From the IMG/VR virus record IMGVR_UViG_2877982868_000011: DNA of 63,284 bases. One strand, 5' to 3'. Made by a program: the position numbers. Of the stretch, positions 51,001 through 54,000 are shown piece after piece. Position 1 is the first letter of the stretch. Each line of letters opens with the position of its first letter. Source of the stretch: a virus. Taxonomy: Duplodnaviria > Heunggongvirae > Uroviricota > Caudoviricetes.

Positions 51001-54000
51001 AGATCCCATAGAAGCAATCAAGTTCCGTATGGATCAACAAGGCCTCTCTTATGCCGATATGAAACAATACATTGGCTCAGCATCTAAAGTATCTGAGGTC
51101 TTAAATCGTAAGCGTCCATTAAGTCTTTCAATGATCCGTAGACTACATGACGGACTTGGAATTCCTGCAGATATCTTAATTCAAGATATGAGCGCAATTG
51201 AATGGAGCCTAGTTGACGCAGAGGAAGAAGAAACAGCCATGACTAGCGTCATTGCTCGGTGTGAGTCAGCCGTCACATCACCTTCTGCTTATTTCGCTGA
51301 AAAGGCTACAGAATCTTACTTTTCAAAAATGTTGTTCAGCGCAGTAAGGGGTAATGGCAAATGCAAAGAAAAACGGAATGTTTTTTCTTTGATAAGTAAC
51401 TTGTCATCAAGTTTCACAGCGGCTAGCAACCTGAATGACGAAATGACTTCTGACGGAAATTACTTATTATTACCATGAAAATTGAACTCATTAGCAAAAA
51501 AGTTGAACGCTTGGTTATGACACGGCTAGAAGGCGATTCAACAGCAAAAAAAGCCATAAAAACAACCGTTAATCTAAATAATGAACTTTACACTAATGTG
51601 AAGGATTCAAAGCTATTTAGAGTGAGATATTTTGCCTCCGTAACTATTGAAGGCAGGCTTGAGATGGACATCACATACGACTTTGACTTCCGGTCAGAAG
51701 ATGATTTTTCTCATGAAATGGCAAAATCATATGAGGTAAGGTCCATTGCTCCCAATATGGCATATCCCTATATAAAAACATATGCCGAGCAAATTATCCT
51801 CATGTCAAACCTTGGTAGGTTCACTCTGCCTTATTTTGATTTCTTGGCCAATCCCATGGAAACGAACAGTAATAAGTGAAATTCCCCACCCGGCCTCAGC
51901 GCCGGGTTTTCTTTGCCTCACGATCCCCACACCTAAAAACACATAATCAATTGTATTTGTTGAAAAATAAATAGATACAACTTGCTAAACAACGCAATCC
52001 AGATCTCCCTCAAATCTCTTTATTTATCCTGTCGAATTCCTACAACAAAATAAAACACCATAAGAATCAATACGATATTTGAAAACCAAGAGAATTTATC
52101 ATTTTGCTATTGCCATTAATTTATCATTCCGATAAAGTTCACCCATCAGCAGGACGCACTACTCACCAGGGCGGTGAATATACAACGATTCGAATATGAA
52201 TCTACGGCGCTGACAAAGCGCAATAACCAAAGTGAACTTTGGGGTGAATGCAGAAGCTAACCTTCTCGGCGGAGGCGCTTTGCAATGATTACGCGACCGG
52301 AGTTAGTCGCCCGGCTGTATTCACCGCCAAAGTTCATCAGGAGGTTCCATATGACACGCAGAACTCAGTTCAAAGGCAATTCTCGTTCTCGTCGTCGTGA
52401 GCGTTTAAAGGCAAAGGCATTAGCTAACGGCGTACTGGCCCGCGAAGAAGCAATAAGTTCAGAAGTATTACACCGCCCAACTCTAAGTAGAGCGCAGATT
52501 CAGGCTAAAGGTACTCACGAAACGCCTGATCGCATAGAAGACGCTAAGCCAATTAAGTTCATGGCACAGGACGTGATCTGGCAGCAGGAAGAATACAGAC
52601 GCAATCTGGAGCGAGCGGCCATTGTGTACGCGAATGAGTTTGGACATAAGCAACCAGAAACTGGTGTATGTCTTCCAAATGTAGCTCTTTACGCGGCAGG
52701 CTACCGGAAATCCAAACAACTGACAGCAAGATGACTTGTGTTGGTCGCCAGAAAATGAAATTAGGCAGCAAACCACTTATTTGAGGTGATATATGACAAA
52801 ATCATGGAGCGTACCTTTTCCTGAATCAGAAACTGAACATGATGGAATGCCTGTTTTCTGGAGATTCCAGGCGACAGTTGAAGAAGATGGGATAAAAATA
52901 TTCGCACTTCAATATATAGCTTTTCATCAGACAGAGCATTATGCATGGTTGGTTCCTGCGCATTGGATTGTTAATTTTAAACCAGCACCAAATCAGTGGT
53001 TACAGGAATGGAAACAAAGGAGAAATAGATATGCAATTAAGAAAGTAGCAAAAAATGCAGAAAGATCTTTTGCATTCCCAACGAAGAAACTTGCCATTGA
53101 AAGTTTATTGCGCCGGAAGAAATACCATTTAATGAGAATCAAACAAGATTTGGCTGTTGTATCAACTCTTGTTGATGGTATGAAGAATATTGATACATCA
53201 ACACCAGATATTGAATATAACTTTGGACACAACCAAGAAACAGAAAATTGGGTATTTTATTAGTACGAATAAGCACTGTGTATTCATTCCAACGAGTGAA
53301 TACACGGAGCAATGTCGCTCGTAACTAAACAGGAGCCGACTTGTTCTGATTATTGGAAATCTTCTTTGCCCTCCAGTGTGAGGGCAATTTTTTTGACGGA
53401 GGATATATGAAATTACGTGTCTGGCATATCCCGCAAGTACCTATGAAGCCGTTCATTGTAGAAGTGGCAAGTGTTGAAGAGGGTGTTCGTCTGATGGACG
53501 CACTGGCTGATTATGACGCCTTTCAGTATGACAACAACATCAAGCCTGATTACTGCAATGCTAACGGCCTTGAGATGTGGGATGAGAGCCTTACCGATGA
53601 AGATTTATCAGAGATGGGGCTTACTGATCGCTGGGTGGATTGGTACAGCGAATGCCAATGTTACGACGACCCACGTAAATATCTCGAAAGCCTGAAAGAA
53701 GAAACATCAGCCGCCTAAGCGCGGCTTTACCGCATACCAATAACGCTTCACTCGAGGCGTTTTTCGTTATGTATAAATAAGGAGCACACCATGCAATATG
53801 CCATTGCAGGGTGGCCTGTTGCTGGCTGCCCTTCCGAATCTTTACTTGAACGAATTACCCGTAAATTACGTGACGGATGGAAACGCCTTATCGACATACT
53901 TAATCAGCCAGGAGTCCCGAAAAATGGATCAAACAATTATGGCTATCCAGACTAAATTCACTATCGCCACTTTTATTGGCGATGAAAAGATGTTTCGTGA

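Follow-up and report, generated by a model that had tools for sequence, protein, structure and literature searches.

Which functions does a Stx-converting lambdoid prophage carry in the early interval between the antiterminator gene N and cIII, and do any of them counter host or prophage defenses? We analyzed a window of 63,284 nucleotides from a caudoviricete genome (IMG/VR record IMGVR_UViG_2877982868_000011), in which two open reading frames, hereafter ORF1 and ORF2, occupy this part of the pL operon. A first-pass annotation of the same DNA had considered both to be candidates for anti-defense or superinfection-exclusion roles, by comparison with lambda, and the comparison is apt: sieB, orf28, ral, and ea10 all lie in the same interval of lambda. 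We propose, with a probability of roughly 0.6, that the interval contains three separate elements and not two, namely ORF1, the small RNA PreS/LPR1, and a homolog of P22 gene 17. All three are already present in public phage genomes, and in that sense the content of the interval is not new; part of the ORF1-PreS-17 block was found in 2255 of 5426 complete Escherichia coli genomes.

Layout of the interval between N and cIII

Both ORFs are real and occupy exactly the plus-strand positions first assigned to them (Table 1), each with a Shine-Dalgarno sequence (GAGGTGATAT-ATG for ORF1 and GGAGGATAT-ATG for ORF2) 6–8 nt from its start codon. Counts of substitutions at codon positions 1/2/3 against diverged homologs (48/29/96 for ORF1 and a Pectobacterium homolog, 27/20/59 for ORF2 and N4 gp18) indicate purifying selection on both in the assigned frames. 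Their placement downstream of N in the pL operon was likewise borne out by profile matches for N upstream and cIII downstream, and the counterpart of the upstream neighbor is annotated as N in H-19B, 933W, and HK97. The full gene order is cI, a PD-Lambda-2-like operon, a terminator, N, ORF1, PreS/tL2a, 17, cIII, kil, gam, bet, and exo.

Table 1. Features identified between N and cIII, in window coordinates.
Feature	Position	Strand	Evidence or remarks
N antiterminator, H-19B/933W/HK97 type	52351..52734	+	Pfam N_peptide 1.6e-15; phrog_271 1.6e-39
3'-end remnant of lambda/21-type N gene	52735..52784	+	Reads ..TCVGRQKMKLGSKPLI then stop; out of frame with resident N
ORF1, 156 aa, pI 9.1, phage accessory protein	52793..53263	+	phrog_1636; equals HK97 gp45, 933W L0079
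Conserved RNA hairpin with an 11-bp stem, directly before the PreS core	53278..53305	+	Covariation
PreS/LPR1 Hfq-dependent small RNA (probable)	53307..53394	+	Near-identity to lambda ral-ea10 spacer
Intrinsic terminator, equivalent to lambda tL2a	53366..53394	+	8-bp stem, 6-nt loop, T7; terminator scan, lambda alignment
ORF2, 103 aa, pI 4.1, P22 gene 17 homolog	53407..53718	+	Pfam PF17420 (GP17) 7.3e-56
Second terminator-like hairpin, in the 17-cIII gap	53742..53771	+	Terminator scan; HK97 has the same sequence ahead of cIII
cIII thermoregulator RNA element and cIII gene (gene at 53791-53955)	53778..53955	+	Rfam RF01804 (88.5 bits at 53778-53836); Pfam Lambda_CIII 1.5e-30

The block bears the signs of mosaic exchange. 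Other ORF1 loci have intact N alleles that end in the same sequence as the N remnant found here, and the remnant marks the left junction of the mosaic block that holds ORF1. The commonest point at which identity between loci breaks is ~49 nt before the start codon of ORF1, close to where the resident N ends, and the mosaic breakpoints form two clusters, one by the N stop and the other at tL2a. The slot analysis points to the sites on either side of PreS as exchange points for accessory genes, and their occupants provide a candidate list for counter-defense screens. Neither ral nor sieB was present in the window or at any of the 80 ORF1 loci sampled; within the window, a tblastn search with lambda Ral found no match and lambda Ea10 had no detectable match.

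No sigma-70-like promoter was found on the plus strand between pL and cIII. ORF1 starts 58 nt past N with no strong terminator hairpin in the gap, and ORF1 is for this reason probably co-produced with N, which would place its synthesis at the start of infection or induction. The terminator scan detected a single weak terminator-like hairpin inside N (52653-52665) and located the first strong one downstream of N after ORF1. As a counterpoint to joint expression, Rho-dependent termination may occur between N and ORF1. ORF2, which lies behind tL2a, would need N antitermination and be a delayed-early gene.

The ORF1–ORF2 spacer and ORF2

The 143-nt spacer between the two ORFs contains the third element, a conserved small RNA with its own terminator, which alignment with lambda very probably identifies as PreS/LPR1. 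The lambda RNA, described in 2024 and ~88 nt long, lies in the ral-ea10 spacer with its 3' end at tL2a; it binds Hfq, raises DnaN translation, and supports replication (10.1101/2024.10.31.621285). Positions 53273-53385, spanning the 5' hairpin to the terminator stem, were near-identical to the lambda ral-ea10 spacer, and the two share the terminator hairpin, the U-tract, and the predicted architecture. They differ by two bases at the terminator foot and in their flanking genes, which are ral and ea10 in lambda but ORF1 and gene 17 here. The ends given in Table 1 follow from the published length and 3' end, since the source preprint provides no coordinates. The predicted fold, a 5' stem-loop and an A/U-rich single strand followed by the terminator and U7 (z = -3.86), is typical of small RNAs; Rfam had no match for PreS, and the HK97 annotation places a terminator at the equivalent of tL2a. 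In the hairpin preceding the PreS core, 8 of the 11 stem pairs exhibited compensatory double changes among 61 distinct variants, with a single non-pair in all at those eight pairs. This hairpin is identical in lambda, while the P22 version has diverged yet is still paired. By analogy with lambda, the only phage in which Hfq binding, lytic-cycle expression, and activation of dnaN translation have been shown, the present copy might behave in the same way.

ORF2 is, virtually without doubt, a member of the gp17 family. The PF17420 profile matched its residues 1-98 over profile positions 1-98 of 98 (186.8 bits, cut-off 25), phrog_1510 matched with an E-value of 5.7e-58, and identity was 88% to P22 gp17 and 65% to N4 gp18. 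ORF2 retains every one of the 13 residues that are invariant in an alignment of 37 sequences (P9, Q10, L33, Y36, D37, F39, Q40, K46, D48, Y49, N51, W76, and W79). The gene is named 17 in the H-19B annotation, and PGAP names its product "superinfection exclusion protein". The original statement that neither product belongs to a recognized family thus fails for ORF2, which has this full-length Pfam match, and stands for ORF1. P22 gene 17 encodes a protein of the same length as ORF2, sits at the same place directly upstream of c3/cIII, and is preceded by the same PreS-like spacer and terminator; homologs also occur in virulent phages, including N4 (gp18), G7C-like phages, Ackermannviridae, and SPO1-like Bacillus phages. 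The tL2a-cIII slot is taken by Ea10 ("ssb") in lambda, 933W, and many Stx phages; Ea10 is also small and acidic but is a positional alternative to ORF2, not a homolog.

P22 gene 17 is a counter-exclusion factor because it lets P22 grow on Salmonella carrying a Fels prophage, a phenotype described decades ago. The note in the P22 RefSeq record states that gene 17 permits growth on a Fels2 lysogen, while a passage of PMC4837284, citing Susskind and Botstein 1978, gives the phenotype on a Fels-1 lysogen; to the extent of that passage, these secondary sources are at odds over the prophage concerned (Fels-1 in PMC4837284, Fels-2 in P22 RefSeq). We slightly favor the view that ORF2 would have counter-exclusion activity in the present phage, an analogy drawn from Salmonella genetics to a Stx phage of E. 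coli. The small size, acidity, and invariant polar residues of gp17 are compatible with an inhibitor that acts by protein or ligand binding. PADLOC yielded no match for ORF2, the gp17 profile had none in the PDB, and neither the target nor the mechanism of gene 17 was found in the searchable literature. We also considered whether gp17 is linked to the OLD inhibitors Oad1 and Oad2 and rejected the idea: Oad1 is ICP1 Gp205, which has no homologs outside ICP1, and Oad2 is related to P22 EaE.

ORF1 and its relatives

ORF1 is 99–100% identical to HK97 gp45 and 933W L0079 and occupies the same position after N. HK97 and 933W are among the best-studied lambdoid phages, and searches of the literature for L0079, HK97 gp45, and phrog_1636 found nothing relevant. 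The phrog_1636 profile covered the whole protein (2.7e-112, positions 1-156 of 156) and was also matched by 47 of 47 distant relatives. The family comprises 87 representatives, all from phages, both temperate and virulent, whose hosts span several bacterial phyla. Pfam, NCBIfam, and PADLOC contained no family for ORF1, with no Pfam match above threshold, or for its 47 distant relatives; the best PADLOC match (Cas1_II, E 0.018, 12 bits) was noise, and sequence and profile searches of the PDB with ORF1 gave nothing below E 0.1. Domain fusions were also rejected, as the sole long matches, P0186 and P0200, were repetitive or spurious.

Remote-homology and structure-prediction searches had been suggested at the outset. 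They placed ORF2 in PF17420 and provided ORF1 with a confident AF2 model (pLDDT 93.3) from an alignment of 47 sequences, used in place of a 20-sequence alignment whose model was unusable (pLDDT 59.5). No solved structure neighbored the model, and a BFVD search with it matched uncharacterized phage proteins only. Neither in sequence nor in fold did ORF1 resemble known anti-defense proteins. Its gene has a GC content of 0.34–0.38, compared to 0.46–0.50 in neighboring genes.

In the sampled contigs, the slot immediately upstream of PreS was most often occupied by Ral, with ORF1 second: among PreS loci with a readable upstream gene, 28 had Ral and 16 had ORF1, and many other small genes were seen there as well. 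The two never occurred together at the 80 ORF1 loci. Lambda Ral lies in this very slot upstream of PreS/tL2a in the pL operon, but it has 66 amino acids against 156 for ORF1, whose predicted fold is unrelated. We consider the common slot to be a lead and not evidence of common function. Neighborhoods of distant ORF1 relatives revealed no recurrent neighbor gene. The ORF1 profile had no match in the early regions of lambda, P22, and N4, which carry gp17 or its slot, and ORF1 and gp17 were for this reason rejected as a functional pair. Association with plasmid leading regions is a hallmark of anti-defense genes. For ORF1 such an association was rejected: 26 of 27 plasmid matches were on non-mobilizable records, which look like phage-plasmids or misassigned chromosome, and one was on a conjugative record.

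Possible roles of ORF1

Our best guess for ORF1, offered tentatively and at less than even odds, is an early accessory or counter-defense role. The support for anti-defense is positional, because it comes from the slot shared with ral, the AT-rich composition, and the location upstream of the first strong terminator-like hairpin. In such a role ORF1 would act as a non-enzymatic binding protein that neutralizes a host or prophage function on behalf of the incoming phage. In a 2026 preprint, the pL recombination loci of lambdoid phages are presented as an anti-defense hotspot, with Oad2 as an example. HK97, which carries the ORF1 homolog gp45, is still sensitive to P2 OLD; ORF1 therefore does not counter P2 OLD. 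A broader reading would join the two genes: ORF1 would be the first member of a new family of phage counter-defense proteins without structural precedent, made with N before any terminator and standing in for Ral upstream of PreS, and gp17, with its broad distribution, would inhibit a defense carried by P2-like or lambda-like (Fels) prophages. As a whole we hold this reading to be doubtful. For practical purposes, ORF1 and gene 17 are two small early genes that are easily cloned. Of the roles first suggested for the pair, anti-defense fits the published P22 gene 17 genetics in the case of ORF2, nothing found here shows it for ORF1, and exclusion by a lysogen is unlikely for both.

ORF1 might instead be a nucleic-acid-binding regulator of phage development, acting in transcription, antitermination, or the lysis-lysogeny decision, and not in anti-defense, a reading we regard as unlikely. 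Residues 61-120, at the center of the protein, carry a net charge of +13, and in the model this strongly basic part contains a 33-residue helix. The residues kept among distant relatives seem to have a structural role and not a catalytic one. The contexts of ORF1 also point in this direction: the gene directly follows N or Nun-like regulators in Stx and HK97 phages, lies between a gene for a 65-aa Cro-like HTH protein and that for a Rha regulator in Vibrio phage PvVp04, and is found directly upstream of xis-int in Pectobacterium and Brenneria prophages. The basic center and the place after a Cro-like gene in the Vibrio phage fit such a regulator equally well. Against this, the searches detected in ORF1 neither a DNA-binding family nor a DNA-binding fold, HTH and RHH included; ORF1 is missing from lambda, P22, and N4 and differs in position between phage groups. 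Its exchange with unrelated small genes, ral included, is the behavior of dispensable cargo, unlike that of a core regulator.

A host-takeover factor, which like Kil would inhibit or redirect a housekeeping process (replication, division, or transcription, for example) and have no immune target, would also be an early gene in the neighborhood of kil and cIII, where ORF1 is found. In virulent phages the family occurs among early and middle genes beside those for nucleotide and DNA metabolism; the relative in phiEa2809 follows dexA, and that in JWDelta lies between homologs of N4 gp24 and gp25. The spread of the family across several bacterial phyla suggests a conserved target. We nevertheless find this role improbable: ORF1 has no similarity to any known takeover protein, it is patchily distributed even between close relatives, and it lacks a conserved neighbor.

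It is scarcely credible that one or both ORFs are expressed from the prophage as superinfection-exclusion genes that protect the lysogen, as the label "superinfection exclusion" given to ORF2 in PGAP, Pfam, and PHROGs and the presence of sieB in the same interval of lambda and P22 would have it, because sieB lies on the opposite strand, with its own promoter in P22, tblastn with lambda and P22 SieB found no similarity in the window, to either ORF or elsewhere, the P22 gene 17 phenotype is escape from exclusion and not exclusion, many gp17 homologs come from strictly virulent phages, for which there is no lysogen to protect, and neither product is hydrophobic (GRAVY -0.59 for each). Neither ORF is likely to act in exclusion in the lysogen, for the further reason that both are on the pL strand downstream of that repressor-controlled promoter, no promoter of its own was found for either, and ORF2 is behind an intrinsic terminator. 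By analogy with P22, the database label on gp17 records, "superinfection exclusion protein", which is carried by many phage and bacterial entries, is probably the reverse of the protein's effect.

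Early-left region of the window

A lambdoid prophage has its immunity and early-left region at around 49.7–56 kb of the window, and its pL operon lies on the + strand. The window represents a Stx-converting prophage, as indicated by a gene for the ribosome-inactivating-protein A subunit. The two ORFs that the first-pass annotation had placed between N and cIII are real genes, because both are preceded by good Shine-Dalgarno sequences and both show an excess of third-codon-position substitutions relative to a diverged homologue (48/29/96 at positions 1/2/3 for ORF1 and 27/20/59 for ORF2). 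The lambda genes ral, sieB, and ea10 are all absent from the window.

The operon occupying the lambda rexAB slot encodes a HigB-like toxin (PADLOC PD-Lambda-2_A, 2.5e-42), an HTH protein (PD-Lambda-2_B, 3.8e-50, covering only the first 125 of 402 profile positions), and a 134-aa protein (PD-T4-9_C, 3.2e-11). It has the look of a defence system expressed from the prophage, perhaps hybrid or split. Elsewhere, the late or accessory region contains a very large ORF of 2806 aa (4987–13407, − strand).

Coordinates of early-left and related features in the window
Feature	Position	Strand	Remarks
Ribosome-inactivating-protein A subunit (Shiga toxin A)	40018-40977	-	319 aa; family match
cI	49697-50401		first in early-left gene order
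Three-gene operon	50538-51879	+	lambda rexAB slot, downstream of cI
Terminator	51888-51907		between three-gene operon and N
N	52351-52734	+	H-19B-type
Lambda/21-type N C-terminus remnant (..TCVGRQKMKLGSKPLI*)	52735-52784	+	50 nt; N stop to ORF1 ribosome-binding site
ORF1	52793-53263	+	3' of N
Hairpin	53278-53305	+	11-pair stem, directly 5' of PreS
PreS/LPR1	~53307-53394	+	ends inferred; near-identity to lambda spacer
Terminator (tL2a equivalent)	53366-53387, then T7, to 53394	+	terminator scan
ORF2	53407-53718	+	between ORF1 and cIII
Lambda cIII thermoregulator RNA element	53778-53836	+	Rfam RF01804, 88.5 bits; spans cIII start codon
cIII	53791-53955		followed by kil, gam, bet, exo

A small RNA between two accessory slots

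The interval was first described as holding two genes, and the element in the spacer between them was overlooked. This 143-nt spacer is near-identical, and in alignment identical from 53273 to 53385, to the lambda ral-ea10 spacer, to which the Hfq-dependent small RNA PreS (LPR1) maps (10.1101/2024.10.31.621285, a 2024 preprint), and we conclude from this near-identity that the window carries PreS. In lambda, PreS is ~88 nt long, is processed to ~68 nt, has the terminator tL2a as its 3' end, is produced during the lytic cycle, and raises DnaN translation, supporting phage replication (10.1101/2024.10.31.621285). The terminator and T7 tract in the window set the approximate position of PreS; its sequence had no match in Rfam, and in its fold (z = −3.86) an A/U-rich single strand links a 5' stem-loop to the terminator. 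For the hairpin directly upstream, 61 distinct variants drawn from E. coli-type and Salmonella/P22-type phages showed compensatory double changes at 8 of the 11 stem pairs, with a single non-pair in total across those eight, which is good evidence of a conserved RNA structure. We found no described function for this hairpin, which may help to process or stabilise PreS.

On both sides of PreS, small accessory genes have been exchanged for one another, among them genes for a 62-aa protein upstream and a 98-aa protein downstream. In the first 120 IMG/VR contigs with the PreS motif, the gene directly upstream encoded Ral (28), ORF1 (16), a 207-aa protein (10), an apparently membrane-located 149-aa protein (7), or one of assorted small proteins; directly downstream were cIII with nothing between (about 41), Ea10 (35), a 322-aa-type protein (8), gp17 (7), or others. 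Among 80 IMG/VR loci encoding identical ORF1, none of which had ral or sieB, the downstream slot held Ea10, gp17, nothing, or other genes, and the upstream gene was an unrelated small gene, a HK022 Nun-like protein, or one of several N alleles (H-19B-type, with the arginine-rich N-terminus of lambda N, or with a distinct N-terminus and a lambda/21-type ending). This variation in occupants indicates that ORF1 and gp17 are interchangeable cargo in two slots around a conserved small RNA. Identity with the window most often ended on the left ~49 nt before the ORF1 ATG, where the resident N gives way to the N remnant, and on the right typically 115–126 nt past the ORF1 stop, at the PreS terminator. 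This remnant places a recombination junction close to the stop codon of the H-19B-type N in the window.

Predicted expression, and candidate role of ORF2

The + strand from the pL region to cIII yielded no sigma-70-like promoter, and transcription from pL would meet its first strong terminator-like hairpin at tL2a, 3' of ORF1. Because tL2a lies only beyond ORF1, this gene would be co-transcribed with N before antitermination, while ORF2, behind the terminator, would need N; Rho-dependent termination may occur between N and ORF1. Both genes would be repressed in a lysogen, making exclusion on the lysogen's behalf unlikely for either, and this expression pattern speaks for functions that benefit the phage on infection or induction.

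ORF2 is securely assigned by sequence to the gp17 family, contrary to the initial view that neither product resembled a recognisable family. It matched Pfam PF17420 ('Superinfection exclusion gene product 17') end to end (E 7.3e-56, 186.8 bits; cut-off, 25 bits), as well as phrog_1510, and is 88% identical to P22 gp17, 65% to N4 gp18, and 100% to a Stx1a phage gene. The same gene is named '17' in the H-19B annotation, and G7C-like, Ackermannviridae, and SPO1-like Bacillus phages carry remoter homologues. With a pI of 4.1, this small protein is acidic; 13 of its residues, including several polar ones, are invariant in the family alignment, and PDB searches found no solved relative.

The P22 RefSeq note on gene 17 (NC_002371) reads 'allows growth on phage Fels2 lysogen', whereas the review text in PMC4837284 names Fels-1 as the prophage excluding P22 17- mutants. 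These secondary sources conflict on the excluding prophage, but by both accounts gene 17 lets P22 escape exclusion by another prophage, which makes it a counter-defence function. The widespread name 'superinfection exclusion protein', also the PGAP product name for ORF2, is thus the reverse of the phenotype that they report, and misleading. Protection of the lysogen by gp17 is further disfavoured by the frequency of homologues in strictly virulent phages. By analogy with P22, ORF2 would serve in counter-exclusion in this phage, with odds slightly better than even. Of the anti-defence or superinfection-exclusion roles first proposed for the interval, the former accords with P22 gene 17, and exclusion by the lysogen fits poorly with the expression logic.

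Candidate roles for ORF1

ORF1 had no match in Pfam, NCBIfam, PADLOC, or PDB sequences, in keeping with the first-pass annotation. It is 99–100% identical to HK97 gp45, 933W L0079, and counterparts in dozens of Stx1 and Stx2 phages; every copy is annotated as hypothetical, and only Enterobacterales prophages carry close relatives. When a profile was searched against 1.84 billion representatives, 87 relatives reached E ≤ 1e-3 (mostly 130–155 aa, 20–30% identical); the 47 that were aligned had PHROG matches solely of function-unknown type and no Pfam or NCBIfam family. The residues kept among distant family members seem to serve structure rather than catalysis, and no solved relative of the predicted fold was found. 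The gene is markedly AT-rich (GC 0.34–0.38 vs 0.46–0.50 for its neighbours).

Our leading, tentative reading (probability about 0.35) is that ORF1 is a binding protein made early to counter defence or exclusion. It is phage-restricted, swappable cargo in Ral's slot and mutually exclusive with ral, and anti-defence genes (Oad2) cluster in lambdoid pL recombination loci according to a recent preprint; against this, ORF1 resembles no known inhibitor, and HK97 is sensitive to P2 OLD despite carrying it. A nucleic-acid-binding regulator, which we consider unlikely, would suit the basic helix of the protein, whose centre is very basic (net charge +13 over residues 61–120), and the position of relatives after Cro-like genes or before xis-int in other phages. 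More doubtful still is a general host-takeover factor. ORF1 and gp17 were rejected as a functional pair, since no ORF1 relative is present in the checked regions of P22, N4, and lambda.

Among 5426 complete E. coli genomes, 2255 carry part of the 52735–53790 block and 87 the full ORF1-PreS-gp17 arrangement. With ORF1, PreS, and gp17 all in public records already, the content of the interval is ordinary.
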